Shown here: one piece after another, positions 5,970-59,651 of the stretch
How positions within the stretch are numbered: position 1 is the stretch's first letter
Layout of the letters: every line of letters starts with the position of its first letter
NCBI GenBank assembly: GCA_964658305.1
Contig: OZ210885.1
Span: 24,676,001 to 24,740,000, forward strand
Length of the DNA stretch: 64,000 bases
Direction of reading: 5' to 3'
Origin: Leptogorgia sarmentosa
Lineage: Eukaryota
Position numbers and translations under genes: made by a program
The notes under the pieces: model-generated
The model's input: the letters and a program-made list of their open reading frames with translations, nothing else
Database searches by the model: none
Told to the model about the DNA's origin: nothing

Positions 5970-7598
5970 ATACTATTGCAAATGCTATAGTTTGATTCGT
6001 TATCTTTACTCGTTATACCTCGGTGGATATAGCGAGTAACAAATCATTCATTTCCCGCGGATAATTATTTGTGGACAGTGGCAGATTACTCGATAGCCTG
6101 AGCAGGCCAAAGCCGACAGGCCTGGGGTTTTGAAGGGAATGATATTTTCCTTAGTTTTTCTCTTTTTATCATAACTAAGCATTGGAATAAGACCTTGGCA
6201 AATTCAGTAATGTTATTGCTGCCTTCCCGTTGGTTTGTGAATATTACCCCTTGAACGTTATCAAGCACAGCGCGCATTATGCTCTGGACTCTTTCTACTA
6301 CGAGATGTAACACCGCCTATACCTGAGACTGAGAGAATACAATCTCAAGCCCCGCGAATTTTCACTTAGCCTATAAGCCTCGCAATCAGTAATCCGCCAC
6401 TGTTTGTGGAATATTTTGTTTGATCTTCGGTTTATACCAAGGTAATTCTCCGCCCTAATCAACTATCATATTGTATAGCGAGTAGTCTAATAGTTCAATA
6501 AGGTTTTGAAATCCAAGATCACATCCGGAGAGGCCCTGATTTTGAAATTTCTTATTTAATAGAATTAGACGTCTGCGAAATCACAATAGATTACAGTTAG
6601 AAAAGTCAATTTTAAGCAGTCGATGGACTAAAAGTCTTCATAACAGTTACGAGTTTGGTTTAGTCCATTGATTAATCTAAGATTTTGTACCCTGCGCCAG
6701 GAACCCACTTACTACTTTTGAAACTGCGTTTGGCGTACCTTCTTCCACCGGTACTGAATATTGAAATATAAAAAGAAAATAGTTAATTACATCACAAAAA
6801 GAAATCATCATTAACTAATCGATGTCATTCATTGAACTGTAGATTTGAAGAAACAGGCAATAACTGAATGTACATGTATAACATTTGGCATTCAGCATTC
6901 AAAGTATACAAATTTTCCAAGGATGCAAGGCTATGGAACATTCCAGCAATACAATTATGTACTGAAATCGTGTACAAAACCCTATAAAAAACGTTTGCTC
7001 TGCCCTTAGGGGGCATATTAGCTAATGCAGGGAATGGGCCAAAATTATTCATCTCTTATGAGCAGGTTTACAACTATATGCAATAAACAAATTATGCAAA
7101 TTGCATATGTTGTGCCCCAGTGCTGCAAAAAAACCCGATTAAATCACTGGTGGGTACACATAAACTACTGCAAATGATATTTGAAATATCGCATCATCGT
7201 TTAACGAACACAGACTTATGTAATGCGTAGAAACACATAATTCGAAAGGTCTAATTGTTTAATTACACATATTAAGCAATGATTGAATGAGGTCGTAGCC
7301 TGAAAACAGACCTACTTATTCACCCTCCCTAAAATTCGCGGGTGAGGGTTCGGGGCGAAACGTAGGTCTGATAAAAATGTTGTCAAAACCGTCTGGAAAA
7401 AGACCGTCAGACGGTCTATTTACCTGATTGGCTAATTCACTTGGTAATGATTTGTGATTGGTTGGTCGCTAACATGAAAGGTTCAGAGCGTGTTTAGAAA
7501 GGTCAAGTTGACAATATTTCATTCAATCGATTTTTATAACTGTAGAATTGCCACATATTGCTAAAAAGAAAATCCAATTATAGTAGTTGTGTGTGGAA

Positions 7599-9841: not shown

Positions 9842-12800
9842 TTATTTGTCTTTATGGTGAGGTGACTTGTAAATACCTTCCCAACGTTTAATAGTATTTC
9901 TTGCCCATGTAAAAAAGTCCCTGTAGTCACTGCCAATGATATCTTTTTTAAATTTCTTGAAAGAATTGTACCCTTTTCTTCCAGGCTGATGTGTGAACAC
10001 CTTACCAGCCACTAGATCCTTTACAATTGTTTTAACAGAAGATTCTGGATCCTGTCCTCCATGGTGGCCACTTGGTCGTTTCTTTTTACAATCTTCATTG
10101 ACTGATTTCATGATTCCACCGAGGGTATGCAATGACCTTGCATTTCTTTGAATTGTCTTTTCTGTTAAGTGTCCACCACTGTTTTTTAGCAAGAGTTTAA
10201 GCATTAGGTTTAGGTGCTCCATGTGCAAATCAAGTGGAATGTTGTTCCCCACTCCTCCAACATAATTAATAAAACGGTTGCTGAGTAAACGTATAGCCTC
10301 ATCTTCAGATAAAACAGCATAGAATTTCACCAAAAAATGTAGCAATAAGTATGCATACTTAGTGTGACGGTGCTTGTATTCAAACAATAATGCAAATTTG
10401 AAGCAGCGAAGTAGCCTGTACCCATCTCCATGTTTTATAGCATCTTCCAAATTTAAAAAATATAAGCCAATCTGAAGACGTGACATGTGATAATTCCATA
10501 TACCATCTTCATCTTTTTCGTCATTTTCATGAACTGGTGCACTAGGAACAAAACCAGGATGTTCTCTCTTTTCATGCCTGTCGAAAAAAAAGTTTCATGA
10601 CAAGATAAAGCACATGCATAATGATATGGGTTATTTTAAACACTGCACATAATTATATTGAACATCCTTAAATTTGGCAACATGCTCTTTTAAAAATTCT
10701 TTACATAATAATCAGGTGTTTGAGATCAATGCTGCCTCAATAGGGTACTTCAAATTTGCATGGTTGCTGCAACCATTTGTTGAATTAAAAAAGTGGAAAT
10801 TCTGTAGTATATCACAACCCTACGTACTAAGCTAAAAATATTCACGACACCCACTGTTCCCTTGTTGCATTTGTGGTATAAACAAGATCACACTGTGATG
10901 ATTTTACACGACATTTGAAGTAGCCATACTTGTCTCTATTTTCACAGCCACCATCATCTGCTATGAGTTGTGGATGATCCTTCTTCTCATGACTGAAAAG
11001 TGAATATATCTATGACAGTTAATTAATATATAAATCAACATCATTTATAAACAGCACTTATAATATGTCGTAGTACTCACAGTACAACATCTACGTATGA
11101 CTAATCATTTGACAATATTATACACTACCGTTTTCTTGCCGAGTGTAGAGGAAATTTCATGCTACATCCAATGCCACGACAAGCAAACCCACTTCTGTGC
11201 TCATCATCCAAACTGACCACTTTTTCAGGCATGTCCAAATTTATAAATACTGCACCCAAAAAAGTATGTGCTTCCTTTTTCAACCAGTCTGCAGTGATTT
11301 CTTTGTCCCAACTTTCAATATTTTCTGGAATAACTCTTTTTGTTGGCTCACCTTGAAAGAAGATATATTTATAATTGAGCCATATAATTTGTACATGATT
11401 GTCAGCTTTAAAAATACCTAGCCATATTTACAATGATTACAATTTTATGTATTAAATTCCCTGTGCTAACAATATGCAAAAATGTTATTATTCACACTGG
11501 CAACCAAATTGGATGTGTGTGTTCCCTATGAGCAAGCAGAGGTGTAGATACCTCTGTTCACAGAGAATTTTGTGTGGTATTAGTGCATTGGGTTGTCCTG
11601 CATATAATTAATAGTTAATGAAGGACCCTAGAGTAATTAGCTTACTTTCAGTTGTTTCCATACCAACGAAATCCATCCACCAACTTATTATATGTGCCTC
11701 AGTTTCTCGATCAAAAAAGTCTTTAAATGCATTGTAATCTACATCAGGTCCTTTTTTTGCATTTGTCTTGCCAGTCCGGTTCATTGAAGCACATGTTGTT
11801 CCAATCTGAGCCATAGAATCATCTTTGAAGTATATATTATGGCAAATCTGCAATTACAATAAATAGATTTTGATAAAATATATTCAATCCTGAGATATTC
11901 GCAGTAAATGAAACCTCTTGGTATTACCGGGTTTTTAAACCAGTAATTAATAATAGTTCAAATAATTTGTAATAGGCAACACTCTGGCCTTATTTATTTA
12001 TATTCACCTGATATAAATTCTTCTTCAGATGCCAGTCAGCAAATGATGGCTCAAGTCCTTCAAGTCTTTCAATCTGACTATCAGCAATAACATTTGCCCA
12101 ACTTGCATTTCGAGCTCTCTCTTCGGTTAGTTGATCACCATCAAATATAATCTTTTCCAATACTTCGGTTTGATGTATTGGAACATACTTGTTTTGAATG
12201 ATATTGCATATTTCTGCCATTTCTGGAGATTTGTTTGAATTTTTAAATATCATTCCCAGTGGGCACTGAATCAAGATGAGAAAACTAATTAATTTAGTGT
12301 TTCTTATTTGTTAAAAATTGATGTTAGTGATTATTTACAATTTATAATTGTACCATTAATATTAATTTTACCAATATTGTGCTTTTATTAAGTTAATCAA
12401 CATTACCCATTCAGATTGTTTCTTCATCTCTTCATTATGTGGGTGAACAATGTGTTTGGTCACTGATTTCCATAAAGGGGTGTATGACTTCAAATAATTT
12501 ACCAATATACGAGGAATGATATTAGACAAATCTTCAACAAATGCTTCTTGGACAACAGATGTTGGAAGAAACTCATCCATACTTAGAGATTTGATACTCC
12601 TTTGTGGTTTGGACCTGCTTACATTTTCTGGGTAATATACTCTGTCAGCTACTGCATACATATGAAAGTAGTGGAGTGATTTGTTCGTTTTGGTAATTGT
12701 TTGACTTCTAGATTTCACTTCTATGTCCCAGTTATCTCCAACTACCCTAAATTTGAACAGAAAAACAATACCACTATCAAGAAAAACTTGGTGTTTCATT

Positions 12801-20406: not shown

Positions 20407-21504
20407 TCAGCTATTCGCTGAGTCGCTGACTTGCATATGTATGACTAATTTGTCGTCCATTGCAAGTTTAAAAACGACTTTCTTTACTTGGAGCAGAGTC
20501 TCTACAATCATCTTTCTTGGGAGATGCGATGTGTCAGTGTCCTCAATGTTGTAATCTTGTGTTGCTTTAACAGAAGTGAACATTGCATTTAGAACCTGGC
20601 CAGAACAATGAAAACGACCTTTATTCTCGCCACTTTCGTCGACAATAACGATATTGGCACTGACGCTTTTCTTCAGATCTTCTGTCATAGTCGTTACGTT
20701 GCAGGTACGACATTCGATGAATTTTTCTGTCGACTCAGGAATCCGGCTTCTGCAAGAAAGGCAAACATGTGCGAAGGATACATCAACAGCCAGCACTCGA
20801 CCAGTCACGTCTACCGCTTCCTTGACTTTGGGTTTCATTTCCTCGGCTGCTGCGATTACTTCTGGTGGTATTTCTACGACTTTAATCTCTTTCACCAAGG
20901 ATTCTGGCGTGCCATTCAGACACCGTTTATTAAAGTAGGCCACTTTGAATTTCTGGAAGACATACGACTCGCCCTCGGATACAGTTGGGATCATTTTCTC
21001 CCAAATCGTTGCTTCGATTACAGCACTTGTGTCAGCCAGGATCAATTGACATTTATCCAGATCTTTCCTAAATGCGTGAGAAAAGACCCTTTCTGTTTGT
21101 CCTTTCCAAATTACTTTCGCTTCGATGGACACGACGTCGCCAGTAAAGCTGGACCAGAGTAAATTGCTGATCAACAGTGGACCCTTGTCGCCGGCAGGTT
21201 TGCTCCATGGAAACGAAATATTCTTGGTTCGCATGACCTTCGAAGTATTGTTCATTATATACTCGATATTCTCCGGTTCAAATTTACGTTTCTTCTGGGA
21301 TACGTTAAAGATTTTGACTGGTGACTTTTTCTGCTCGTTTTCTTTTATGTTTTGACGTTTGTCTGGACTAAAGCAAACCACATGCCTATTTATGTCTTTC
21401 CCCTGGATTTTGAAATCGAAGTATCTGTTGCCCGACGACGGCGTTTTTACGTCGGAGACTTCATGGATGTAACCTTCGACGTCTTCTTTTTTTCTTTCAG
21501 CCAT
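20407..21504 (-). CDS. RPA70-like multi-OB-fold ssDNA-binding protein (365 aa, intronless, intact), probably a Helentron accessory gene
   Basis: OB-fold-like segments (VEGYIHEVSDVK...YFDFKIQ; VSIEAKVIWK...LILADTSAVIEATIWE) and a CxxC-x12-CxxC zinc motif (CLSC...CRTC) as in RPA70 DBD-C. Lies head-to-head with the Rep-Hel ORF. Confidence 0.7.
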   Translation of the reverse strand: MAERKKEDVEGYIHEVSDVKTPSSGNRYFDFKIQGKDINRHVVCFSPDKRQNIKENEQKKSPVKIFNVSQKKRKFEPENIEYIMNNTSKVMRTKNISFPWSKPAGDKGPLLISNLLWSSFTGDVVSIEAKVIWKGQTERVFSHAFRKDLDKCQLILADTSAVIEATIWEKMIPTVSEGESYVFQKFKVAYFNKRCLNGTPESLVKEIKVVEIPPEVIAAAEEMKPKVKEAVDVTGRVLAVDVSFAHVCLSCRSRIPESTEKFIECRTCNVTTMTEDLKKSVSANIVIVDESGENKGRFHCSGQVLNAMFTSVKATQDYNIEDTDTSHLPRKMIVETLLQVKKVVFKLAMDDKLVIHMQVSDSANS

Positions 21505-22439
21505 TTCGCCTCGGCTTTTTGTTGTCGTTTTTGAGGGTTTTTCACTTTTTCTGTATAATTTTTACGCACCAGCAACTGAACCGCCTCACGAAAATACGAA
21601 ATGATAAACCGCACGTGCGTGCCTGCAAATACAGGTTCCGATCTCAGTGGTTCCGATTGGCTAATGAAGCAGAACCGGAAAAACAGGCTCACTTTTTGTC
21701 TAAGTATATGCAGGCTCATGCGACAACTAGAGAAAAATACCCTCGGCAAAAGTAAGTTATTTGTAGAAAATTCGTAGCTTTTTGCCTTTTTCTTTGAACT
21801 CACTAAACGTGTAATTTAGTAGCGTTGAATGCGCCGATGTTTTGCATGAATTGGCAAGCACAGTTCGTCATGCCAATGCTCGCTGATGACCACGCAAGAT
21901 GAATCGCAAGATACTTCGCAAGATGACTTTCCCTAGTAACACTAGGAACTGACAAGTAATATTGCAGGCTCATGCGTTATGTTTTGGAACTTGTTTGTCT
22001 TTGAGTCTTTCGTAAGTCGTATTTATAGGTTGCTGCATGTCGCAGTGCACGTGTCAGTGTCGTCGAAGATATGCAATCACTGCTATACCAGCCTACGGCA
22101 ACAACTCGAAATATTTATCAAATGTGCTCGTATCACATACATAAACTTACAGCACTATTTGTGAGAAAGCCTACACTAAAATTCGTAGAGCACACTTTTC
22201 GATCAGGGCCAATGATTCACAAATACCAAAATACCGAAAGGTACTTTTACATTGCTATCAAACCTCTTTTGTTTAAATTACAATTTTACTCATTGAGTAT
22301 GTTTATAACGCATAGAAAGCATCAGAAGCGAATTTTATACACTCTACAAAACAAAATAAATGCTCTTTGGAGGGCGAAGGGTCAGAAGGGCCTTCATGTC
22401 ATGAATATTTATTACACTCGCGTGGTGTATTACAACAAC

Positions 22440-24776
22440 ATGGCGTTTTATACAAACGAAGTTCGTGTAACGCTATTTATTGATTCAAGTACATGCACAG
22501 ACAATACTGCAATGCTTTCTGACAAGAACATACGATACGATGACTGAAAAAAGAAAGGACATACCATCAATAACTGTCCTACTATTGGCAAACAAAGTCA
22601 AGGTTCGAGTATAAAGCATTTCCAACACTCACGGTATTTTCACTTTCAAACTATTGTATTATTTTCTCATTTTGATAGTAGTGTGAGACAGTACGTAAAG
22701 ACCAGATATTTTGAAACCCACAAACAAAGGGCATTGCTGAATCATATTTTTCCAGGTTTCTTTCTGAAACTTTCTTTTTACCCTGCAAGTGATAGGCAGG
22801 ATTTAGCAATTCAGCATGTGTACAAGAGTTTAACTCACATAAAAAGTGTTTGTCAGTCTGCACTTTATTCTGATATTGAAACTAATCCCGGTCCCCCATT
22901 TTATATCGATCCTACTGTTACAATAAAGGCACCATACAGCCAAGGTAGTGTAAGCATATTTGGAGAAACAATGTCTAGGAATGTGTCTGTGTGCTCTAAT
23001 ATATAACAAAAGGCGGCCTATTTGCTTGCCAGAGGACCTAATTCAAATAATGGCTGTTGGCAATGAGTTATATTTAAGCCTGTCCCAGTCAGCAGGTCAA
23101 ACGTTTCTAATGTTTTCCAAGTTTTCCATCACAACTTACAGTTTTCGACACAGATTATATACTGGAGTATAGTGAAAGCTATAGTGGTATAATAATTGGA
23201 GACTGTTATCTTGATGGATATCAGTACTGTGTGCCATTTCACAGAGCATTTGAATTGCTACTGGCTGAAAACTATTCTTCATTCATCTTAACAATCAACA
23301 GTAATGCTGTTTGCATATATTGTACTTGTTATGGAAAATATAAAATTTTTGACTCGCATTCAAGGGATATTTATGGGCAAAGTAATCCACAAGGTACATG
23401 TGTGTTGTTAGAAGCAGCTAGCATTGATCATGTTATTCTACATTTCCAATCCTTATACAATGAAAACAGTCAATTTGAGATAAAAGGTGTAAATATTCAG
23501 CAAGTTAGTGCCTCAGATATTAACCAGAACTTGCTTGACAATGTTGAAAACTCTGATTTCAAAGAATTTGAATCTGTACATGAGCAGAACTTAACTAACA
23601 ATACAGGAACCTCTGACATGACACCTTCTAATGTCTTCTCAGACACTGAAAGTGCTAACTTTTCTTGCTGGTGTTTACAATGCTGTGCCGTTTCATTGTA
23701 TTCCATTTGCTACTCCACTGTGAAGCCATGTAATTACTGGAATGAAACTACAGTGACTGAAATTGCTTACTTTGGTACTATTTTGTACAATAACACAGGA
23801 ATGCACACTCGTACTGATCTTCCTAGAAAGGTTGAAATATGTGGAGCTGAAGTCCATGTAACATTACAGAATCATTTTGAAGGGGTAGTTAATAACAATT
23901 TAGAAACTCAATTAAATATACTAGAAAGTTTCATATGTAATAGCAGTGAAAGTTCTGGTTTTTTACTTTGGCTTGGAAATTATTGTATTTCTTGCATATT
24001 TCATGGAAGATCAAGGGAAAAGTTGTATTCAGTATTAGCATATGATGGTGCAGATAACCCACCAGCTATATGCTTCTATAAAAATGCAACTGACAAGCAC
24101 ACTTTAATGAAAACACTCTTTAACCTAGCACATGACAAAATTAGGGGAGAATGTACTAATTATGAAATTCAATTTCTATCTTGTTCTTCTGAAGTAACTG
24201 ACATTGAAAGAAAAAGGGTTATGAGAAAACACACACAACACTATCACAATGATAACATAGCACCAGCACAAAAGAAACAAAAGTTAGAAAAACAGAAAAT
24301 ATGGCACAACAATATGCCATGGGAAGATTTAAAAGAACAACCACAAATAGACATGTACATTGAAAAATTTAAAAAGCAAATTAAAGCTGGTCCATTTTAT
24401 ATCTGCTGTGTGTGCAACCGGACATTATATAGAAACTCTGTAATCATCTTAAAGAAAAGTAAGTATATCCGCCAGGATTGTTTTATGATTCAATTTTCTT
24501 TTGATGGCAAAGGGTACATCTGCAAAACTTGTGATGCTAAACTAGTGAAGGGGCAGAAACCATGTCAAGCTGTTGTGAATAACTTATTTGTTGATGAAAC
24601 CCCTGCTGAACTTGCTGCATTAGAGAAACTTGAACAGATCCTGGTTGCGCAGAGAATAGTCTTTGAGAAAATCGTAATAATGCCAAAAGGACAACAAAGA
24701 AAAATTAAAGGAGCTATATGCAATGTGCCAGTAGAGTGTGATCAAACATACAATATTCTACCTAGGCCACCTGATA
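22440..24776 (+). pseudogene. Helentron polyprotein part 1: leader, 2A-like motif, C76-like cysteine protease domains, Cys-rich/DUF6570-like region
   Basis: ATG at 22440, in-frame TGA at 22545, DIETNPGP at 22872-22895, then APYSQG...QCLGMCL...GNELY and KIFDSHSRD, YICCVCNR, ICKTC, GQQRKIKGAICNVP. Frameshifts near 22970 and 23125. Interrupted by the hAT at 24777. Confidence 0.8.
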
Positions 24777-25360
24777 CAGGGGCGGATCCACGGTAGTTTC
24801 CGTAGTTTCCAGAAACTACTGAAAATTTTTAAATGATCTTTTTAAATTAATGTTATAATATGCGTTGCTAATTTGAGGTGATTTTAAGGGCATTTTGTCA
24901 AAATTTTCTGCAAGAATTTTGGTGTTTTTTTTGTCGAAATAGTGGCTTTTTCGTCGAAAATGTAAGTGAAAATTATCAAAAACGCGGGGAAACCGGCCAG
25001 CTATGCGTAGAAGTTTGGGAACTAGCAGGAAACTACTGAGCTTCGAGGAAACTCTTCTCTGATTGGTCGGAAACACCCTGGCCTCGTCTCTTATTGGCCG
25101 GAAACTACTGAGGAAACTACCGAGAAAAGTATAAATACCTAAGCCTACCCCGGTTAGGTTCTCTGTTTTGTAATGACATTGTTGATTTCAACTGTAGTTG
25201 ATTAGTTTCATTCATTTCTACGTTCGAATTTGAGAAGAAAGCTCAAGTTGTAAGTTTTTCTAAAGATTATTGAAATTTAGCTTGTTGAGTAATTATCTTC
25301 GTTCGACGTTAGCGAATAATATTAAAATTAAGATCGATCAATATTTAGGTTTCCGCTTGA

Positions 25361-28142
25361 ATGAATATGGCAGATCAAGTGCGAGCTGTAGCTCGTGGTG
25401 AGCCGATCTTTCGAAAGGAAGACTGCTCTCCGCTTGATATTGGTGCTGTTCTTGATCATGCCGGGCAATTTTCTGACGCTGAGAAGCTACATTTTATTGA
25501 AAATGTATGGAGTCCGCGTGATCCCTTGTTTGAATTTCCGTCGACTGTGGAATCAGGAAAATCGCGTAAATTCCAACGTGCATGGCTACAACAATATTCA
25601 TGGCTTGCTTACTCAAAGTACCTGGACGGTGCCTTCTGTTTACCGTGTTTTCTTATTTGGCCGAGGTGCGACTGTGGCTAAATTGATGAAGTCTCCTATT
25701 ACCTGCTGGACCTCTGCAACCAGTCGTTTTAAAAAACACTCTAATGGAAAGTGTGAGACCCACAATACTGCAGTTTTGGATAACTTTGTGAGGGTTATGA
25801 AGCGCCAAATTGTACCTATAAACGAGCAGCTGGATACTTTACTGCAACAGCAAATTGACACGAACCGCAAAATCCTGTCATCTCTCTTAAAGACTGTTTT
25901 TTTTATGTGGCTGCAACAACATTGCTCTTAGAGGTCACCGAGATGATAAACCTGGAAATTCAGCCTCTCAAGGAAATTTTCGGGCTTTGCTTGCGTTCCG
26001 AGTGGACAGTGGTGATGAGACTCTACAGCAGCACCTGGAAAATGCGCCCAGAAATGCTACTTACACCTCCAAAACCATCCAAAACGAGATGATTACAACT
26101 GTGGGCACATATTTGCTGGATAAGCTGTCATGCGAGATGAAAGGTAGCAGTATTTTGGCAGATGAGGCTGCAGATATCTCGAATAAGGAAAACCTATCTA
26201 TTGTAATCAGGTTTGTGGATGCCTCTAACTCTATACGCGAGGACTTTGTTGGTTATCATCCGTGCAAAGAAGGGACAACTGGAGTAGCCATTAAGAACAT
26301 AATTTTGAAAGCTGTGTCTGATTTGGGACTGTCCATGGATGACTGCCGAGGGCAATGCTATGATGGTGCTGGCAACATGGCAGGACAATTTAATGGAGCC
26401 TCTGCTCTTATCAAGCAACAATATGAGAAGGCTATTTATGTTCACTGTATGAGCCATCGGCTAAACCTTTGTGTAGCTGACACCTGCTCTCTGACTCTTG
26501 TGAGAAACATGATGGGAGTCGTGAAAAAGCTCTCAGACTTTTTCAATAATTCGCCAAAGCGACAAGATTACCTTATGAAGATTGAAGCGTTACTGCCTGG
26601 GAGTAATCACCATGTCCTCATTGATGTTTGCAGGACTAGATGGATTGCACGCATAGATGGGATGGACAGGATTGTTGAATTGCTACTGCCAGTTTTTTCT
26701 ACCCTGGAAGACATTTCATTAAACAGAGATGCATTTGGCAACCAGCAATGGAACTACAACAGTAGGAATGATGCACAGTCCTTGGTGAATGCTATCAACT
26801 TCAGTTTTATTGTTACTGTTGTTGTTGTGAAACACATCTTGGGTTTGACTAGGCCCCTCACAGTTAAGCTGCAAAGAAAGGAGGCAGATCTCATGAAAGC
26901 TAAGGATGAGATTGATAGTTTGAAATCTATCTTGACTGATATGCAAGCCAACATTAATGACAGACACCACATACTGTATGATGAAGCAGTTGAACTGGCA
27001 CATAGTATCCAAATTGAACCTTGTATGCCCAGGTTAACCCAGTGTTATGGAAACCCTGCGACGATGGTCTTCCAACTTGGTTGGGACTGTATAGACTCGA
27101 CAACATGACAACCAGAAATATTACACAGGTTTTATTCTACAAGTACTATACGTTACACTCTGACGCTCTAAACATTATATGATTTAAGGTTACATGGTTG
27201 TATTTATAGTAAAATTACAGGAAGAAAATAACTAAATGATTACGTTAAAGGAAGAAAATACCAAGGCTCCTACGCTTGTAGGAAGATCATTCTTTTCTAA
27301 CTTTAGCTATCTATGGGAACAGATTAGCATAATTTGCGTTCGAAGGAAGAACATGTCAATCAGGGCAATGCATAGGCATTGTTACAATATCCCCTTGAAT
27401 GGCAAAGACCTAGACCTATATTTCCTCTATATATTATTTCTATATATTGCTTATATATAACTTATACTTAGCGCCTAAATGATGGGACTTATTTATCGAC
27501 GCGCGCACATTTCTTAATTTGCGCGACACCCAGAGACAAATCTACAGGGCAAATAATCCAGCCCAAACACCAGAGGATTATTACAGGATAAACTTGACCA
27601 TAGTGTTCCTTGATCATGCACTGCAACAACTTAACACCAGGTTTCAAGATCAAGTGTTTGTGTGCTATAAGGGGTTGTCAATAATTCCCTCACATTTGCT
27701 AGAACACCCACAGGATTGGAAGGACCATGTTATGGAATTCTGTCAGAATTACAGACAGGACATTCCCAATGCTGCTGGTTTAGAGGCAGAGCTTATTTTG
27801 TGGGAAAGATTGTGGAAGGATAAGGAAGGTAAAAAGGAAGATATCCCTGACAGAATATCATTCACCTTCAAGTTTACTGACAAAGAATGTTTTGTAAACA
27901 TTTTTGCTATCCTCCAAGTGCTGGCAACTATCCCAATCACCTCTTCCAGTTGTGAAAGGTCTATTTCAGTGCTACGGAATTTAAAAAACTATTTGCGGAG
28001 TACCATGTCCCAAGATAGACTGAATGGCTTGGCCATTATGCATGCACATGCTGATGTTAACTTAAACCTTGGTGAAATTATTGACTTGTTTGCAAACTTA
28101 CACCCAAGAAGAATGAGGATGGCAAACATTTTGCAGGATTAG
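25361..28142 (+). pseudogene. hAT transposase (THAP12/ZMYM1-like: TTF zinc finger, DUF4371, hATC), frameshifted and interrupted by a solo LTR
   Basis: WLAYSKYLDGAFCLPC, LRGHRDD, ILADEAAD, CRGQCYDGAGNM, VHCMSHRLNL, CRTRW, SCERSISVLRNLKNYLRSTMSQDRLNGLA. Confidence 0.9.
27043..27528 (-). mobile_element. Solo LTR (486 bp)
   Basis: TGT...ACA termini. 5-bp TSD CCCAG at 27038-27042 and 27529-27533. Removal rejoins the transposase as PRLTQRQIYR. AATAAA on the minus strand near 27130. Confidence 0.85.
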
Positions 28143-29149
28143 AGGAAGGTGCATGGTGTGCAGATAAAGACCCAGACATGAAGGTATTGAGTACCAGTAT
28201 ATAGAAGTTCTCATTTTCTTGTGGTCAATTGACTTATAGAGAATTTGTTGATATTTCCAGTTGTTGCTCTTATTCGTAAATTAAAACTAGACTGAATCAA
28301 TGACGTGAAAGAATTGAGTGATGACTGATGAGGTAGTGGTTGTGGCCTTATGGCTTATTCAAATTTTATTTAATATTTATTTTTTTATTCATTTATTTAT
28401 TCATTTTGAAATATTCTGGTTGTTTTGTTGCAGTTGTCATGTTGTTGTGAATTTAACATGAAGGAAAACAGAGTTGAATGACCCATATTATAGTACCGAC
28501 ACAAGGAATATTTAAAGGTGATTAATTAACCTATTTTATACTCATGTCTATTTATTTGTAGTTAATATTTGTTGTCCTTCTATTACAGTTGTTGCTGTTA
28601 TAGAAAACATGATGAATTACATGTACATCTTATTGTATACAAACTATATTAAGGATGAACCATCAAGGTATTGATTAATTTATTTTGTGATACATTGTAC
28701 ATGTCATTCATGTCTTGTCATTTTTATTATCCTTTCAATAGAGCATATCCATTCAATTGTTGTTGGAGACTGAACAGCTCACAATGCCAGTGGTGTTGGT
28801 CCATAAAGTGTGAAAAAGGGAAGTACATGACATGCTTTCTTTTAACATACATTTATGTACTAATTGTCATATTCCTAATTCTTCATTATTCCCTCTCTTT
28901 TTATCATATTTTATCTAGTTATATCATGAATCAAAGAGGATAAAGTCAAGAGCAATGCTATGTAACCTGCAAAACTGTGATCAGCTGGATGGGAGGTTAG
29001 CAGTGAATAGCTTAGCAATGTCCACTTTTAATATGAACCTAGTGGCCGAGTCTACTGCGTGTAAACTGGATTGAAACTTCAAACTAAAGTTAATTATACA
29101 TTTAAGTGTATGTACATAATTGGTAGTACAAGGCATGTAAGTAAAACAC

Positions 29150-32100
29150 TTATTATTATTATTATTATTATTATATTGATACAAAATGCTGTAATGTTTG
29201 TTTGATAATTTGATAAAAATATTCTTGTTCCTCCCGATAAAACGTTCTATGATGTAATATATTTAGATAAATAACAATTAAAAATTTATTAAAAATGATT
29301 TAGTCCATGCATTATAAAAAGCATTCTTAAAAACCGAGCCCATAAAAAAAAAGTCTATAATACATCCGCGATCACTGAGTTTAATTTAAAGTCGTCCACA
29401 TTATCATTATGTGATCTGAAGGGTGTTCTAGATCCTCTTGTACATAGATGGACAGATCTCAAGATTTCAAAAGATAATCGAGTTCTTATCCAGGTTACTA
29501 CGTTACTGTAGTCATCTCCGTTCTTCCGTGCCAGCTTCTCGGCAAGATTTTTTAAAAACAATTGACATTCGGTTCCCATGCCTCCATTTGTCCCAAACAC
29601 TAAGGGAGTAAACGTGCCCATTTCTACATCCAATACTCTTTGCTGGTATTTTCTTTTCTTCTCGTTTTCCTGCTCCTTGAATATCTCGGTCGTGCTTTTG
29701 TTCTGGTTACATTGAGAGTTTACGTGCGTTACACGGACGTCAAAGAATGCCGTAACCCCCCGTGTCCAGAAATCACTAGCCTTTATATCAAGACGTGCGT
29801 CGGAGCTTCTATTCGTGGTCCTTAAGTTGAATTTCTCGTTGTCCAATTGGATGAGTTTCGGTTCTACCTCCACGTTGTTGCAGACTTTGCTGACTAATGT
29901 AGTCAGTAAGTCGCGAACACCGTCATGTCTTCGAGCTACGAAACCTCCTCTTTTACATGAGAGAGCGTGGTTGACTGTGAACGCTGCTCCACACGTACAG
30001 AAACTTGGCAGATCAGATAATGGCAAGTTGTAGCGTAGTCTCATCGAATCCCTGAATTCTTGCTTGTTTAAAACCAAACCTTGCTCTTCTATGGGTATAG
30101 CGTTCAGCCATGAGCTTGCTCCTTTATCTCTGGCTTGAATAACATGCTGCAGTAGGTCATCTGAGAGGGAAGAGTCAATACGTCCCATTTTCACACTCAC
30201 ATTTGTCTTCTTTAATGACTGTTGCTGCTTCTTTAAATCCTCCGTTATCGTTGGCATGGTTGTGCTTTGCGTAATAATAGCCTCCGTGTGTGGACCCGTT
30301 ATTATCTTCGATGTTGTGTATTGTTGGGGTGCCTCTTCTTTCAATGACGGTATCCCTAAACCACCCTGGGCTGGAGTCAGTGTGAAGAGATCAGTTAACT
30401 GGTCAGGTAGTGGTTGTGTTTGTCCAAACAATTCTGGTAGAAGTAACTGATTTACAACCTCCTGGATAGGGTCAACATAATCTTCAAATGAATCAATGGT
30501 TCGCAAGAAATATGTAAATTTCGATTTGTAACCTTTTGTAAAGGCAGCATAAGCTGCATGAGGTTGGCTCTTTGCAATTTCACTTAGAGTTTCAATCTCT
30601 GCTTTCCATTGGGCAATCTTCTCGTTGCAGTACTCGTCTTTGTAACCCTGAGAACCCACAACTGCCCCAAGATGGCGTTTCCCTTCGCATGTTATGTTGA
30701 CTTCTTCTCCAAAAACATGTTCTGCTTCAGAGGCAATTGTCTTTGATTTGACAATTAGCCAGCTTTTGGAACCATTAACATGATATCCAAATTTCTTTCC
30801 TTCATCGCACAGGGTCTTATACCAGGAATATAATGCCGTGATCTTTCCTCCTCCTGCTGAGTCGTCAGCTAACCAAACTTGTTTCACACCAGATGTGTTA
30901 CATCTCAGGTTTTGAATGATGAGTGATGTGTTAACTAAGTACCATGGCATGGCCAAAGGATCACCCTGTGTGATTCCCTCTTGGGATAAGATTTCACCTC
31001 CACCACATACAAATAGCCTAGACGGATGTCTATAGGTGTTTACTATGTAGAGTGAGATTTCTTTGCACGTGATTTGTATATTATGCATGGCCACATGTCG
31101 ATTCATCAGATTGAAAGCATTGCTCGCATCAATCAATAGTATACCATCACTTTCATCTTCTGCAAATATCTGACTCATGGCATGCACAGCGGCTTCGGCA
31201 CCTGCACTGTGTCCTGCGCAAACTTGCAGAGGCCCTGCTGCTAGTTTGATTTCTTCCTTGAAGAACGCGGATACAGTTTTGCCAATAATTCGCCGTAATA
31301 CTTCTCCTACTCCTATAGGCCGGATTCCCGGGTTCTTATCCAAAGGTATTAGCCTGCACGAGGTATAAGCTTCAACAAGTGAGGGGTCATATGATGATTT
31401 CAGTAGATTTCTCGTCATTATGGCTATTTCTTCTCTTAAACGCTTTCCTTCTTTGGTGAAATTCTTTGAACATAAGATTCTTCTGTACAGGTCTGCGTCC
31501 ATTCCCGATGGTCCTGCTGACCCTTTTGTTCTCATCGCGGCGTTCTGAATCATCTGTTCGTCGATTAAATCAAAAACATTTGGCGGGGTGTTATCCATTG
31601 GACCGTACAGAAGACATTCTTCTTCAATATCTGCTGCGGGTGGATGCTTCTTCTTGAGGTCTTCTAACACTTCAGGCGTTAGCGTGAGAAGCCCCGAAGA
31701 ACTCTCTGTGTCCAAGAGCTTTATGGCTGCTGTTATCTTCCCTTGCATTACTAATTTCGCAAACACTTTAGATAAATCTTCAACTGACCTTGCCTTCTTC
31801 GATGTTTTAAACTTTTTTTGGATGAATCTTACTTCTTTCATTAGGAGCTTTATCTCACCTCGTCTCCATAACAGTAATCTGCGTTCAATAGCTTCGGTAT
31901 GCTCTTTGCTTTTAGACTTCGCCGAGGGTTTTTGTAAAATCAGCGTAGGGAGCACCATAAATGCTTTTAAGGCAATCGAATTTAAATCTGCATTTGCATT
32001 AAATTGTTTAAGCCAATATGTCAACTCGTCTATGAAATCTTTCCCTGCTTTACCCGACGGTATATTGAAAATATTTCTTCTAAAGTGAACGATTTCATCG

Positions 32101-32700
32101 TATATACCATTTACATCATTGCAGAGTTGTTGATAGCTAATTTCTCCCCACATTTTTGCTTTAATTTCAGATGGTAATACATTTATTTCGGGTAGATTTG
32201 GTAAACATTCAGCTGGTCGGCTTTCATCTTTGTTTACTAGCTCCTTGGGGGTTTGTAAGACTTTGCCCGTATGCAAATTTGGCATTCGCTTCGGTTGGCT
32301 TGTCATAATGGCCACTTCGGCGTCAACAACTTCTTCCCTGATTTCTTCCAAAGGGATATCACTAACTGAAGAACCATCCCGCATCTTTTGAAGCCTTGAC
32401 GCTTGGTCTCTTAGGTTTTGACCCGTAAGGCCAAGATTGCCATGGCCTTTCTCATCCCAAAGCTGCTTCATTAGCTGAATATAGCCCATCTTTCTACCAC
32501 TTGTCTGACTGATCGGCGGTTCATCCGAAGATAGTAATTCTTGAGCTCTCTCCTTACATTCTAATACATCCCTGTTCAACTCTTCTGTCCATTTCGTTCT
32601 TCTAGACTTCTTTGACATTGTTTTACGACGGAATAGTCTTCAAACACATCAAACACATGATAATTTTGCAGAGCCTGTTTTTGACACGTCCATCTCTAAG
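29150..32700 (-). mobile_element. RLE-type non-LTR retrotransposon (CRE-like), apparently full length
   Basis: Single long RT-RLE ORF with a 3' (TAA)n tail at 29150-29174. The 5' end is approximate and no TSD was established. Confidence 0.85.
29355..32618 (-). CDS. Reverse transcriptase + zinc knuckle + restriction-like endonuclease (1087 aa, intact)
   Basis: GSAGPSG, IRPIGVGEVLRR, IDASNAFN, QGDPLAM, WLADD, RHLGAVVG, CTC..NHALSC..RHD, RLDI..FDVRVT, EKKRKY. Confidence 0.93.
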   Translation of the reverse strand: MSKKSRRTKWTEELNRDVLECKERAQELLSSDEPPISQTSGRKMGYIQLMKQLWDEKGHGNLGLTGQNLRDQASRLQKMRDGSSVSDIPLEEIREEVVDAEVAIMTSQPKRMPNLHTGKVLQTPKELVNKDESRPAECLPNLPEINVLPSEIKAKMWGEISYQQLCNDVNGIYDEIVHFRRNIFNIPSGKAGKDFIDELTYWLKQFNANADLNSIALKAFMVLPTLILQKPSAKSKSKEHTEAIERRLLLWRRGEIKLLMKEVRFIQKKFKTSKKARSVEDLSKVFAKLVMQGKITAAIKLLDTESSSGLLTLTPEVLEDLKKKHPPAADIEEECLLYGPMDNTPPNVFDLIDEQMIQNAAMRTKGSAGPSGMDADLYRRILCSKNFTKEGKRLREEIAIMTRNLLKSSYDPSLVEAYTSCRLIPLDKNPGIRPIGVGEVLRRIIGKTVSAFFKEEIKLAAGPLQVCAGHSAGAEAAVHAMSQIFAEDESDGILLIDASNAFNLMNRHVAMHNIQITCKEISLYIVNTYRHPSRLFVCGGGEILSQEGITQGDPLAMPWYLVNTSLIIQNLRCNTSGVKQVWLADDSAGGGKITALYSWYKTLCDEGKKFGYHVNGSKSWLIVKSKTIASEAEHVFGEEVNITCEGKRHLGAVVGSQGYKDEYCNEKIAQWKAEIETLSEIAKSQPHAAYAAFTKGYKSKFTYFLRTIDSFEDYVDPIQEVVNQLLLPELFGQTQPLPDQLTDLFTLTPAQGGLGIPSLKEEAPQQYTTSKIITGPHTEAIITQSTTMPTITEDLKKQQQSLKKTNVSVKMGRIDSSLSDDLLQHVIQARDKGASSWLNAIPIEEQGLVLNKQEFRDSMRLRYNLPLSDLPSFCTCGAAFTVNHALSCKRGGFVARRHDGVRDLLTTLVSKVCNNVEVEPKLIQLDNEKFNLRTTNRSSDARLDIKASDFWTRGVTAFFDVRVTHVNSQCNQNKSTTEIFKEQENEKKRKYQQRVLDVEMGTFTPLVFGTNGGMGTECQLFLKNLAEKLARKNGDDYSNVVTWIRTRLSFEILRSVHLCTRGSRTPFRSHNDNVDDFKLNSVIADVL

Positions 32701-32946
32701 GTCTGAGGATTAATCTTATTAAAATTCACGATTTTGTACTGAATAAAAGAAACTAAAAGCAAAATTTGCAGTTGAAATATACAATTTTAACTTAGAAATA
32801 TTTCTCTCAGAATGCAGGAAAATGGGTTTCCGCGGTTCTAGATTTCAAAATTTTACGGGGGAGCATGCCCCCGGACCCCCCTAGCGGCTCGCGCCTTTGG
32901 CGCTCGGAAACCACAGGATCAATATTCTGAATCCGCCCCTGTGATA

Positions 32947-35748
32947 GATCAGGAATAATTTTACTTAAACTAAAAAGGAAGCTTCAATTCAGGGGCCATG
33001 TTTACTTCCAAGCAGTTCGTCCTCAGTTTGTTCTTTGTGCATTAAACTGGCTTCTAGCAAACAATCTGTTATATGAGAACATTCAAATTCAGTGTGACAA
33101 TATTAGGTCAGACTTGACTAATTTAAACTGTTCGTTACCTAATGATGAAAACACGGACAATTCATTGCAACTGCAAACAACTGCAAATATAGAACAGCTT
33201 GACGTAGAAGGTGAGGAACAAGATGATCCATTAAATGAATACCGCTCAGCTGCAAGTGAAACCTGTCTTCAGTCCATCTTGCCAAATTATCCTGTTAATC
33301 TTGAAAATACAGATAGTGATAGTTCAACAGGAAGAGAAGTTTTTAACATAGCACCAGGTGAAGGTAAACACCCTGTATCAATGATGACTGATAAACTTTG
33401 TGAGGAACTTTCATTTCCTGTACTCTTTCCGAAAGGAAGGTTTGGCTACACAGCTGAACGAGACATAAAATTATCTCCAGTAAAATATTTTAATGCTAGG
33501 CTACTACATTACAGTGGAAAGTTTGCAACAAATCCAGAATATCTTTTTTTTGCACAGTTCATCATGGAACAGAAAAAGATCTGTGATAGTATCAATATAG
33601 CTTTGAAAAAGGTACATGGTCAGTCTGTTACAGCATCCCAAGTAAAATCAAACACACAAGATTTTCAAAATCTTCTTTTGCAAGATCAAGCTGATTTGTT
33701 TTTAAGACAAATTCCTGGCTCACCTCCTTACTGGCAAAAATTTATGTACGAAGTTGTAGCAATGGTTAAACAGCTAGGAATACCAACATGGTTTTTGACC
33801 TTATCATGTGCAGATTTAAGGTGGCCTGAATTATTTCACATTATTGCCAAGACAAAGGGTCATAACATCCAGGTGATCTCGATACACGGAAAAGGACTGG
33901 GACTAGCTGTCGGATAGAAATCCATTTTTCGATTGAAACAACTGAGTATCTCCCATAATATACATTATTTCGATTCCATATTTTTATCAAAGCTATAGTT
34001 CTCATAGGCAAACATAATTACAAAATTTCAACCAGTTTCACGCAGAATTACGAAAGATATAATCGAGTGAATATAATTCTATTCGGACAACCCTTTCTGA
34101 GCGCTGATTGGCTGAAATACGAACACGAGATCACCTGGATGACAGATGAGGAAGTAGAGGCTCTCTCCTATCATGAGCGATGTTCAATGCTAAATTTAAA
34201 CCCAGTTATTGTTGCTAAACACTTCCAGTACCGTGTTGGAAAATTTTTCAGGGAAGTCTTGCTTTCAAATGCTAACCCAATTGGTAAGATAGTGTACTAT
34301 GCACTCCGTATTGAATTTCAAATGAGAGGTTCACCACATTTACATGCCTTAATATGGACATCTGATTGCCCAGACTTGACAAATGATACAAAGGATGCAT
34401 ATATTGATTACATTGACAAACATGTACAAGCATACCTTCCAAACAGAGAAACAGACCCTCATCTTTACGACTTAGTAAAAACCTACCAGACTCATAATCA
34501 TAGTAAAACATGCAGAAAATACAAGAATGTTGCATGTAGATTCAACTTTGGACAGTTTTTTACGGAGAAAACAATTGTTGCTGATCCATTATCGGAAGAC
34601 ATAGATGAAGAGACGAAATCTAATATTCTAACCAGAAGAAAGGAAATTTTGTCGAAAGTTAAGCAGAAAATTGACGATGTGCTAAACCCAAGCAAATCTA
34701 CTTATGAGCCAAATGCAACTCTAAATGACATTTTAAACGATATAGGTATTACAGAACAAGCTTATAAATGGGCAATATCGATATCACCAGACTCTGACCA
34801 TGAATTGCATCTCAAAAGACCACTTGACAGTTGTTTTATCAACAGTTACTTTGTTGCTGGATTAAAAGGATTTGCCGCAAATGTTGACTTACAGCCGGTA
34901 TTTAATCATTATAAATGTATTACATATGTTTGTTCCTATTTTACAAAGGATGAGACTGAATGTTCTCTAGCCATTTTGAATGCTACAAAAGAAGCTAAAC
35001 AATTGAACTTAAGTATAAGAGATGGATTGAAAAAAATAGGAGCAGCTTTTCTCTCTGCCCGTGAAGTCAGTGCTCAAGAATGTGTTTATAGGTGTATGCC
35101 CAAACTCTGGTTAAGAAAAATGTTTCCGAAAACCATTTTCGTTAGCACAGATTTTGCTGAAAACCGTGTTAGGGTTACAAAAACTCAACGAGAACTTGAT
35201 GAATTGGATGATGATAGTACTGACATTTTTAAGTCTAACATTATTGTCCGTTACAGTGACAAACCCAAAAGCATTCCTGCCGTCAATAATATGTGCTTAG
35301 CATTGTTTGCTGCAAATTATTTTAAAGATTACAAGAGTGATTTCCATGAAGTATCTGATTCTCAACCACAAATACTTAGTGATGATTTTATTGAATCTCA
35401 AAATATTGAGAACACTGGACTTCCTGATCAAATAAAACTGATGAACACCAAAGAAGTTATGAAATGCAGAAAAGTTAAAGCAGTCATTCGATATCACATT
35501 CCAAACAAAAGAAAAGAACCTGAGAAATATTTTCATCACCTTCTTATGTTGTATTTCCCATGGCGTAATGAACAGGAACTCCTTGGTCAAGACCACACAT
35601 ATATTTCCAAAATTTATGAACCAGATGTTCAAACGATAGTCGAACGCAACAAAGAAATATTTGAACCACATGGTGATGCTATTGATGAAGCGCTAGAAAG
35701 CTTACGCAACTTTGATGGGATCCCAACTTGCTTCTATGACCCAATAAA
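32947..35748 (+). pseudogene. Helentron polyprotein part 2: HUH Rep endonuclease domain, interrupted by the MITE at 33869-34138
   Basis: EELSFPVLFPKG, GSPPYW, QLGIPTWFLTLSCAD (motif 1), RIEFQMRGSPHLHALIW (HUH motif 2), YVCSYFTK (motif 3), REVSAQE, LMLYFPWRNE. Confidence 0.92.
33869..34138. mobile_element. MITE (270 bp) with 2-bp AT TSD; superfamily uncertain
   Basis: TIRs CCAGGTGATCTCG / CGAGATCACCTGG with AT on both sides. Removal restores KGHNMTDEEV. Confidence 0.88.
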
Positions 35749-36002
35749 TATGGGGCGCCAAATATGACATAAAGATTAGGTTAATTATACAAAGTTAAAG
35801 TCAAATTTCTAAAGTCAAATAAATATATAGAAAGTAAAAATTGTATATGTAAAGTCAAAAAGTGAATTATATAAAGTAGAAATAGTATTTATATAGTTAA
35901 AAACATCGATAAAGCGAAAATGTTTATATATATAGTCATGGGCACCAACGGTCAGCACGTGTCATTCAGTTCCATGCCCAGAACGCAATTTAGAAAGTCA
36001 AT

Positions 36003-37906
36003 ATGGCGGAAGAGAGCAACCCATTGAACCTGGAGAACTTTTTCAGAAATATCCCATCGCAGTTGGAAGAGGCGCGCAGGAATCTCCACTCAGATAATAT
36101 TAATGTTTTGGAATTTATTCAACGTCGTCTTGAAGATAGTATTCATGTTTTAAATGTTTTGATTTGGCGAAGTTCCTGCCTTCAAATAGGCGAATGCGAG
36201 AACCTACTAAGATGTTTGTTTTCTGAGCTACAGCAACTATACGCGAGGTATGACAATCTATGTTCCCAGTCAGTAGTTCAAAGTGAACACCATTTTTCGT
36301 GCCCCACAGAAACTACTATTAGAGGACGGCCGCGGTATTCGATATCTAACGATGTCATTTCAAGTTTACATCAAATCCATCGTAGCTGGCAGCAAGTATC
36401 TGCTGATATTGGAGTTGTAGGAATTCAAGTCCCTCAGTTTATTTAACTATTTATTTATTTACTCCCAATATAAACGATACAAGAACGTATACATGTGTTC
36501 TCTATTCTAGCCTGCTTGTCTCGCCTGAACGCAGGCATTGTTATTAACAACCGGAAGTTAAAATATGTTCTCGGTTAGTCGCTACAGAGTAAGCTATCGC
36601 ACTCTGCTCAGGCGAAGGCACGAAAACAGAATGGTTGTAAACAACACAAGTGGGCCACGAAGCAGCTACAGTGATGTAAGCAGTGATCAATTGTGCCAAC
36701 ATATTTCTCAGGTTCTGCACATTCTTCCTAATGCAGGAGAAACCTTTGTTTTGGGGGCATTGCGGCAAAGAGGAATTCATGTACAAAGATATCGGGTACG
36801 AGATGCAATTTGGATGGTAGATCCACTGAGTCGAGCAATGAGAAGATCTGTAGCTGTTATGAGACGTGTTTATAATGTTCCTTGCCCAAATGCATTGTGG
36901 TAAGTGTCAGTGAGGCAGACAGTCTTGCATTTGTCATGGAATATTATCCTCAGTAATATTTTCAGACTGCACTATTGGGAAACACCCCTGTTATAGTATA
37001 TTGTTGGCTTTCCTGTTACTTCCACCAGGACACTATCAAATGGATATTTGACTGGTTGTAGACAACTAAACCCTTTTTTATTAACTTTCAGGCATATTGA
37101 TGGCCACCGTAAGCTTATTCGATGGCGTTTGGTGACGCATGGTGGTATTGATGGCTACAGTAGGTGGTATTGATGGCTACAGTAGGTGCATTGTTTATTT
37201 AACATGTTCACCAAATAACTGTGCATCTACAGTTCTCAATCTTTTTATTCATGCAGTGGAATGGTTTGGGGTACCATCAAGAGTTAGAGCAGACTTTGGA
37301 ACTGAAAATGTCGATGTTGCTCGCTATATGTAACAACACCCTGATCGTGGGACAAACAGAGGAAGTTTTATTACAGGGAAAAGCACCCACAATCAGAGAA
37401 TTGAGAGATTGTGGGCTGACCTCAGAAGAGTTGTTATCAGATACTTTGAACATCTGTTCCATCACCTAGAGCAATCAGGTGTGCTTGATGTTCTGGATGA
37501 GAAATGTTTGTTTGCCCTTCACTATGTATTCATTCCCAGAATAAACAGAGCCCTTAATGAGTTTGCAGCAGACTGGAACAATCATCCACTGAGCACAGAA
37601 GGTAACCGCTCACCTCTGTCCCTATGGCACACAGGGGTGATGACAATGATTAATTCTGGCCATAGTGCAATTGAAAGTCTGATCACTGACAACTGGAATG
37701 ATTATGGAGTGGATGATGATGGACCTTTGCCAGAATCTCATTCTGATAACAATGTTCAAGTACCAGGTGTTGAATTTGATGCAAGTGATGAGCAACTACA
37801 GTACTTGTATAATGCAGTAAATCCATTAGAAGATGATGGAAACCATGGCTGTGAACTTTATTGCCAAACTATTAACATAATAAACCAAATGCTGGCTCAA
37901 ACATAA
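36003..37906 (+). pseudogene. IS3EU-type DDE integrase/transposase, disrupted
   Basis: GRPR..HTH (IGVSYRTL), [67 protein letters not shown]. Disrupted by a solo LTR, a 22-bp tandem duplication at about 37141-37184 and a TAA at 37331. Confidence 0.88.
36416..36586. mobile_element. Short solo LTR-like insert (171 bp)
   Basis: TGTAG...CTACA termini. 4-bp TSD GAGT at 36412-36415 and 36587-36590. Removal restores ADIGVSYRTLLRRR. Confidence 0.8.
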
Positions 37907-59451: not shown

Positions 59452-59651
59452 TCTAGAAACGAAATACGGATATATTCGAGCACAGTTCGGACGGAATTGT
59501 GTTGTATTATTTTATCGAGAACAGTCATTCGAACTTGCTACTAAGGACGCATTTATTGGCGGCGCAAGGATATTAGCCATATATAAGATTGGAGAATTGG
59601 TATGTACATTTAGTATCGTTTCGAAGTATGGGGAATTGTATTGTGTTAAAA

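Follow-up and report, generated by a model that had tools for sequence, protein, structure and literature searches.

A 2A-like motif at the head of a Helentron deubiquitinase

The window analysed here is a stretch of 64,000 nucleotides from Leptogorgia sarmentosa (GenBank assembly GCA_964658305.1, contig OZ210885.1, positions 24,676,001 to 24,740,000 of the forward strand), and it holds the decayed copy of a Helentron, a rolling-circle DNA transposon, in which a motif of the 2A (StopGo) type directly precedes a cysteine-protease-like domain. Peptides of this type occur in RNA viruses, in some retrotransposons without long terminal repeats (non-LTR retrotransposons) and in a few cellular genes. 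The motif DIETNPGP is encoded on the plus strand by GAT ATT GAA ACT AAT CCC GGT CCC at 22872-22895, with a serine directly before it (SDIETNPGP, 22869-22895); the letters and a six-frame scan bear out the preliminary description on this point. The surrounding tract, VYKSLTHIKSVCQSALYSDIETNPGP, covers 22818-22895 on the same strand and agrees with the 2A core D(V/I)ExNPG|P, placing the predicted break point between the glycine at 22890-22892 and the proline at 22893-22895. It is the only NPGP found across the six frames of the window. From the six-frame residue frequencies of the window, D[VI]ExNPGP is expected 3.7e-5 times, and it appeared in none of 300 dinucleotide-preserving shuffles; NPGP alone is expected 0.35 times and was seen once. 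The motif stands 144 codons 3′ of the ATG at 22440, in the same frame. It is genuine and not a chance match.

The domain that follows the motif (22896-23520, plus strand, its end being approximate) was identified by sequence and structure comparisons. The Pfam family PF04843 (Herpes_teg_N) was found at residues 115-255 of P0001, the closest protein found (809 aa), with an E value of 1.5e-6, and above the Pfam cut-off in relatives including P0014 and P0088. A profile built from 23 relatives matched chain A of PDB entry 8ADD, the zebrafish Helitron domain DrT1-VTD2, with an E value of 4e-11. The AlphaFold2 model of the relative P0031 (mean predicted local distance difference test score 70.7, mostly above 80 in the domain itself) matched 8ADD in Foldseek with an E value of 6.9e-12 and a template-modelling score of 0.74, as well as the murine cytomegalovirus M48 protease (2j7q, E 7.9e-11). 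By these matches the domain is a viral-tegument-like deubiquitinase (VTD) and not a known polyprotein-processing protease. The protease-like domain of the preliminary description keeps its position and changes its identity, on the strength of the 8ADD match. The cysteine of an AG.QC motif is invariant among the relatives; the 2A-like motif lies about 30 residues upstream of this catalytic residue and only a few residues upstream of the VTD domain. Helentrons with such domains have been described from vertebrates, insects, cnidarians and molluscs, and zebrafish members were shown to be active deubiquitinases (Erven et al. 2022, PMC9741609).

The remainder of the element was located by Pfam and, for its Rep and helicase parts, also by tblastn with full-length relatives. 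All of its parts lie on the plus strand. A 561-codon open frame (23111-24796) carries the rest of the first VTD, a second Cys-rich region and the N-terminal part of DUF6570 (about 24548-24775). The C-terminal part of DUF6570 and the Rep domain (Helitron_like_N, HUH type, PF14214) are found at 32931-35767 in two frames, 32931-33917 and 33959-35767. A PIF1-type helicase (PF05970) with a C-terminal endonuclease of the apurinic/apyrimidinic (APE) type follows at 42924-45260; Exo_endo_phos and Exo_endo_phos_2 match residues 595-772 of the 42924-45257 frame. Between the Rep and helicase parts lie about 7 kb of unrelated sequence, including an integrase-core open reading frame (ORF; rva_4) at 37334-37906. 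Helentrons are defined by the presence of Rep, a helicase and, at the C-terminus, an AP endonuclease (Thomas et al. 2014, PMC4067079). By its domain content, Rep plus a PIF1 helicase with the APE endonuclease fused to it, the host element is a Helentron, and the rolling-circle transposon proposed beforehand, in the light of the Pfam matches to DUF6570, Helitron_like_N, PIF1 and Exo_endo_phos, can be placed in this class. The second Cys-rich region, at 23618-24500 between the first VTD and DUF6570 (with CLQCCAVSLYSICYS and GNYCISCIFHG), may represent another VTD-like domain that has diverged, by analogy with zebrafish DrT1; a VTD-like identity is not supported by any Pfam match to this region.

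Upstream of the motif, the leader frame runs on the plus strand over 151 codons from the ATG at 22440 to the glycine of NPG (22440-22892) and is interrupted by a TGA at 22545-22547. The length of about 150 residues given in the preliminary description holds for the ancestral frame when counted from this ATG, but the frame is broken in the window and its true start is uncertain. It is open upstream to 22029, with another ATG at 22071, and the alignment of the relative P0157 reaches upstream to 22140; the N-terminus of P0002 (MAFKTNQV) resembles the MAFYTNEV encoded at 22440. The leaders of relatives have in common a basic block, EPSRIPVKQL..KSRKIRKAVRKYIRKNVPRSSKIH, part of which (VRKYIRKNVPRSS) is matched by VRQYVKTRYFET in the window, and helices are predicted in this block in the P0031 model. 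The leader gave no Pfam family and no usable match in the ESM Atlas.

The window copy is decayed and its ancestor carried one continuous frame

In the window, the ATG at 22440 and the motif share a frame, as first described, but the TGA at 22545-22547 closes it and no in-frame ATG follows before the motif. On the 3′ side, a frameshift lies 24 codons past the motif, and the motif's frame closes again at TAA 23004, 36 codons past it. As located by tblastn, the deubiquitinase domain resumes in frame +1 (22966-23121) and passes from there to frame +2 (23105-24784). Accordingly P0001 maps onto the window in three successive frames and then crosses a nested insertion, its residues 720-726 bridging 24784 to 32934.

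We aligned Logan contigs of public runs to 22300-23400 to explain these breaks. A contig with the same organism label (X1), aligned over 22488-23043, carries CGA instead of TGA at 22545. It differs from the window only by three clustered changes, 22539 G>A, 22544 C>A and 22545 T>C, which yield RYNERKK, close to the RHNEQK of relatives; another contig of that organism label (X4) agrees with the window at the TGA site. Contigs with two other organism labels (X6 and X9) contain 11 additional bases at 22966-22968, which by our own reading restore GETAGQQCLGMCLCAL in the frame of the motif. The corresponding 11-nt deletion in the window, at 22966, falls within ETAGQQC next to the catalytic cysteine and throws this residue out of frame. 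X1 and X6 also do without one base at 23125, so that the window has a 1-nt insertion near this position. Because the contigs restore each break, the ancestral element had one frame that took in leader, motif and deubiquitinase. The single ORF of the preliminary description (ATG 22440, leader, motif, protease) consequently holds for the ancestral element and not for the present sequence of the window. The window copy, in which a stop codon and two frameshifts are joined by a nested insertion of 8.1 kb, is a pseudogene and cannot express anything.

An intron in the leader was also considered (GT at 22603 with AG at 22678 or 22691, or a reading from the ATG at 22530 in another frame) and was dropped, since the X1 contig opens the frame without it. 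The gene models of relatives differ among themselves by frameshifts in the leader region of this supposed intron.

Decay also reaches the motif itself in some copies. Nucleotide variants in contigs of related organisms change I to S or P to L, and one copy combines N>S and G>C with a 1-nt deletion. Drifted motifs were likewise seen in gene models of decayed copies (NPSP in P0002, NPGL in P0157) and in the X8 and X9 contigs, as is expected once selection stops. The variants in the contigs of related organisms are drift in dead copies and are uninformative on selection.

The motif is conserved at the junction between leader and deubiquitinase

Conservation was assessed with a HMMER scan of P0001 against 1.84 billion representatives of 50% identity clusters, which gave 5027 matches at E values up to 1e-3. 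The best 150 of these matches were examined together with P0001 and P0002, the relatives being at most 50% identical to one another. Thirty-five rows align over the residue just past the motif; five of these alignments start after the motif, and 30 cover the site. Among these 30 site-covering representatives, drawn from the best 150 matches, the canonical D[VI]ExNPGP was found in 22, a variant changed at one position in seven (NPSP, NPVP, DTE, a lost D, AQKNPGP, GIEQNPGP and DVATNPGP), and no motif in one. Longer relatives of P0031 were then sought in a second search, which gave 53 clusters, P0001 itself among them. In 47 of the other 52 the canonical motif stands directly 5′ of the VTD domain, one has DVEEHPGP, and four are gene models starting downstream of the site, which brings the canonical form to 47 of 48 site-covering members. 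The named hosts are the corals Desmophyllum pertusum, Oculina patagonica, Paramuricea clavata and Dendronephthya gigantea, the clam Ruditapes philippinarum and the nemertean Lineus longissimus. In the relatives P0158, P0294, P0297, P0318 and P0330, one ORF runs from the motif into Rep and helicase; the gene models with this continuous ORF include P0318 (1807 aa) and P0330 (1790 aa).

A MAFFT alignment of 24 representatives of the close clade with the window located the constraint within this region. Mean pairwise column identity was 0.90 over the seven constrained columns of the motif, compared with 0.27 in the leader upstream and 0.55 at the start of the VTD. Within the motif the D, N, P and P columns do not vary at all; of the 25 rows, 24 have E, 23 have G and 23 have I or V at the second position, while the 'x' column is free (T in 15, K in 7, then Q, M and V). 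The leucine three residues before the aspartate is kept in 23 of 24 rows; the residue directly before the aspartate varies in the family (S, N, R, G, T). As read from this alignment, the pattern of constraint follows the 2A rule residue for residue, the free 'x' included. A lack of conservation in homologues, named in the preliminary description as a refutation, is not what is seen: in diverged relatives the motif is the best conserved stretch of the leader region. The 2A-like site is genuine and is conserved across a family of DNA transposons.

The family consensus for the lineage of the window is vyk..nH..n.c...L..DiEtNPGP. Two contexts precede the VTD, the window type VYK..NH..N.C...L..DIE(T/K)NPGP and a Leu-rich type, YVPLLLRLSNDVEENPGP.

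A second Helentron lineage carries the motif in another setting

The relative P0148 is a 2187-aa ORF with DUF6570, OTU, Rep, PIF1 and endonuclease domains and the N-terminus MIFVLLLAGDVEKNPGP. We examined 120 long relatives of its first 420 residues. In this OTU-type lineage, which has an OTU in place of the VTD, the strict motif was present in 37 of the 120 and NPGP in 40, and several of the relatives that have no motif are gene models starting downstream of its place. The context is almost always LLLLAGD(V/I)ExNPGP with a basic R(T/M/Q)KK.S stretch behind it, and the motif can lie at any point between residues 14 and 602. The P0148 search also brought up VTD-Helentron proteins of fish (e.g. 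P0245-P0251, P0267, P0292), which contain no NPGP. Because of these, the 2A-like junction is recurrent and not universal in Helentrons.

In three relatives with full-length OTU-type ORFs (P0237, P0224 and P0220), a GDSL/SGNH-hydrolase-like domain was seen at about residues 20-170, upstream of a canonical motif at about residue 455, and STPR, DUF6570, OTU, Rep, helicase and endonuclease domains follow downstream of it.

A possible co-translational break between leader and transposase

The ancestral element would thus have been a single ORF made of the leader, the 2A-like site (L-x-x-D-I-E-T-N-P-G|P), VTD, DUF6570, Rep, PIF1 helicase and APE endonuclease. We propose that in intact members the site acts during translation as picornavirus-type 2A does. 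Once the glycine occupies the P site and the proline codon the A site, peptide-bond formation would be blocked by the nascent tract inside the exit tunnel, and the basic leader would be released ending in NPG. The ribosome would then either resume at the proline, giving a deubiquitinase-RepHel-endonuclease protein with an N-terminal proline, or fall off. As a result, the accessory leader would be separated from the transposase and the amount of transposase would be limited. This mechanism is established for 2A peptides (Odon et al. 2013, PMC3708506; a second preprint). For the Helentrons, we infer any recoding, how resumption and fall-off are balanced, and what the leader does. We put the probability of NPGP-dependent release in intact elements, with or without resumption, at roughly 0.55.

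The structural setting is consistent with this proposal. In the AlphaFold2 model of P0031, a helix at -20 to -9 is followed by a low-confidence loop through NPGP, and the confident VTD fold begins about 10 residues later. The motif, its constraint, a loop just outside a folded domain and a helix upstream have together the look expected of a StopGo site, as far as sequence and model can tell. The same helix-then-loop layout is described for the active classes in a 2026 preprint that catalogues eukaryotic 2A-like peptides (PMC13405545).

Several observations weigh against the proposal. The copy in the window is itself non-functional. Its tract has one leucine at -19 to -10, where activity has been tied to at least three (PMC13405545), and a serine where most active 2As have a glycine before the aspartate; P2A and F2A are mostly inactivated by substituting this glycine, N and I being tolerated (the second preprint). 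The only reporter data linked to the family come from the supplement of the catalogue, in which 20-mers sat in a fluorescent-protein loop in HEK293T cells and a sort-seq classifier made the calls. We could link seven of these peptides to the VTD family or its sisters. Three were called 'Nonskipping Only', namely HRIKDVAAKLCGDIETNPGP, identical to P0047, the family-type HKINHCKFNLSKDVETNPGP, and HRVNFGQFKLCTDIEKNPGP, close to P0106. Four were called 'Falloff Only', namely the family-type HRVNFGQFKVCTDIEKNPGP, NAYIPLLIRQANDVEENPGP from Acropora and Pocillopora, NVYVPLLLRLSNDVEENPGP, as in P0340, and QVYSKLLLQLSNDVETNPGP, as in P0102. The source protein of the Acropora peptide, XP_044182051.1, is entered there as 'ATP-dependent DNA helicase' with the top PDB match 'Viral tegument-like DUBs', that is, deubiquitinases (PMC13405545). 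The tally of three non-skipping, four falloff and no classical skipping peptides refers to 20-residue inserts in human cells and to calls made by a classifier, and 2A activity depends on context beyond 20 residues (Odon et al. 2013, PMC3708506; the second preprint). In our analysis, a tuning of protein amount, which the preliminary description had offered as an alternative to separation of two products, fits these calls better than clean separation does.

The site could accordingly be a pure translational attenuator, acting mainly through release that no resumption follows. Most of the product would then be leader, and only the minority of ribosomes that read through would make the transposase, so that the site would be a self-limiting brake. 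The four falloff calls and the lack of skipping calls among the seven linked 20-mers speak for such a brake, as does the argument that 2A-like peptides of eukaryotes and retrotransposons more commonly act by lowering protein output (PMC13405545). However, those calls rest on a sort-seq classifier applied to 20-mers in one human cell line, bacterial peptides, which presumably have no such function, group with the falloff and nonskipping classes (PMC13405545), and three of the four 20-mers from the closest relatives were plainly non-skipping; we consider pure attenuation rather unlikely. That last result instead favours an inactive descendant of a 2A site in the VTD lineage, kept for another reason, for instance because it forms part of an extension at the N-terminus of the deubiquitinase or is itself a recognition element, in which case the element would make one fusion protein. 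The upstream tract that is not Leu-rich and the unconserved glycine before the aspartate point the same way. Such a descendant is hard to reconcile with conservation that obeys the 2A rule at each residue and leaves 'x' free, with the position of NPGP in a low-confidence loop outside the folded domain of the P0031 model, and with sister lineages of Leu-rich context that keep the motif at the same place, and a 20-residue insert is shorter than the context that 2A activity needs (Odon et al. 2013, PMC3708506). We judge an inactive relic to be about as unlikely as pure attenuation; these two are the main rivals of NPGP-dependent release, which we prefer.

Two further explanations fare much worse. 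The frame of the window is broken on both sides of the motif and GT...AG pairs occur in 22603-22691, as would suit a chance match or an artefact of gene prediction, such as a wrong intron model joining a leader to a protease. This explanation is already contradicted by the contigs, since X1 opens the frame without an intron and X6 and X9 restore it downstream, by the conservation of the motif, which dozens of independent clusters have in the same position, and by the expectation of 3.7e-5; hardly any weight is left to it. The proximity of the motif to the catalytic cysteine of a papain-like domain could also suggest that NPG|P is a cleavage site of the element's own cysteine protease. This seems very improbable to us: VTD domains are deubiquitinases, the Helitron members tested act on the C-termini of ubiquitin and NEDD8, with no self-processing described for them in the accessible part of that report (PMC9741609), and the OTU-type lineage keeps the motif without an adjoining VTD.

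Relation to known 2A systems

The nearest parallel is found in APE-type non-LTR retrotransposons (Rex1, L2, CR1, Crack, Ingi), in which D(V/I)ExNPGP lies near the N-terminus of a long ORF in marine invertebrates and divides a short or ORF1-like leader from the enzymatic protein (PMC3708506). In the Helentrons, by contrast, the product after the site begins with a deubiquitinase, and the lineage of the window has the context H-x-x-N-x-C-x-x-x-L-x-x-D where the active retrotransposon 2As are Leu-rich. The Helentron APE endonuclease is related to that of CR1 elements (Thomas et al. 2014, PMC4067079). Since the endonuclease is CR1-related and CR1 elements carry 2A, the site may mark an exchange between Helentrons and CR1-type retrotransposons.

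The F2A, T2A and P2A peptides of picornaviruses and insect viruses have the identical core, the same predicted helix followed by a loop, and a place at the boundary of two modules in one ORF. The leucine three residues before the aspartate is also present in E2A and in the 2A of foot-and-mouth disease virus (F2A). Unlike these viral peptides, the window has a serine in place of the glycine before the aspartate and few leucines upstream, and the 20-mers of its relatives gave no skipping in HEK293T cells.

The order of domains agrees with that of the published VTD Helentrons (PMC9741609), in which a VTD, sometimes with an OTU, precedes Rep, helicase and APE endonuclease, and both sequence and fold match 8ADD. 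'NPGP' does not occur in that paper, and the fish proteins are without it, so that the junction belongs to some lineages only. The catalogue of eukaryotic 2A-like peptides (10.64898/2026.06.17.732966, PMC13405545) lists and assays at least seven peptides of the VTD family or its sister lineages. In its text and the supplements searched, however, the word 'Helitron' is never used, transposon contexts are discussed as retrotransposons only, and neither conservation at the level of the family nor the position of the site relative to the deubiquitinase and RepHel is reported. The second preprint calls the eukaryotic 2A cases sporadic and retrotransposon-linked. The literature searched, which left subscription journals and Repbase Reports aside so that an earlier mention is possible, contained no paper linking 2A to Helitrons, in keeping with the earlier remark that 2A is less familiar for Helitron-like elements. 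We describe a 2A-type motif of the standard kind whose host element belongs to a new class, and the conservation within the family is the main new evidence.

A broader reading is that 2A-type recoding is old, recurrent and selected in Helentron biology across at least Cnidaria, Mollusca and Nemertea, with StopGo or fall-off sites giving an accessory leader and a deubiquitinase-RepHel-endonuclease protein from one ORF in a set ratio. The leader would be a basic peptide in the VTD lineage and a GDSL-hydrolase-like protein in another. We advance this reading tentatively, at slightly less than even odds. If it is true, 2A recoding would for the first time have been shown for a class of DNA transposons. 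A selected site at one fixed junction in several animal phyla would extend such recoding to a new class of mobile elements and would give Helentrons a means to co-express or to ration their transposase. The Leu-poor context H..N.C...L..DIExNPGP could represent a new functional class of 2A tuned for release over resumption, and the diverged Leu-rich and Leu-poor contexts at one homologous position would offer a natural series on skipping, fall-off and read-through. The copy in the window is a fossil without present function.

Nested insertions and neighbouring elements

The nested insertions that split DUF6570 occupy 24797-32930 and consist of a hAT-like element and a retroelement-like ORF. The hAT-like element has ORFs at 25361-28142 in three frames of the plus strand, with DUF4371 and a hAT C-terminal dimerisation domain; a second hAT dimerisation ORF is present in the window at 54264-54998. 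The retroelement-like ORF, at 29355-32618 on the minus strand, is intact over 1087 aa. It matched no Pfam family at E values up to 0.01, and motifs resembling those of reverse transcriptases were recognised in it by eye (RPIGVGEVLRR, LLIDASNAFN, WLADDSAGGG).

Just upstream of the leader and on the opposite strand, a 365-aa ORF with a CxxC...CxxC pattern lies at 20407-21504. It gave only a weak hint of an OB-fold (HROB, E 0.088), and its PDB matches had E values above 0.02; it may be an accessory gene resembling replication protein A, of the kind reported for Helentrons.

Towards the end of the window, 59577-63998 on the plus strand holds a piece of a BEL/Pao-type LTR retrotransposon (DUF1759, aspartyl protease, RVT_1, Peptidase_A17) that runs past the window end. 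DEAD/Helicase_C ORFs at 7587-9631 on the plus strand adjoin an ORF at 9842-10594 on the minus strand with DUF6589.

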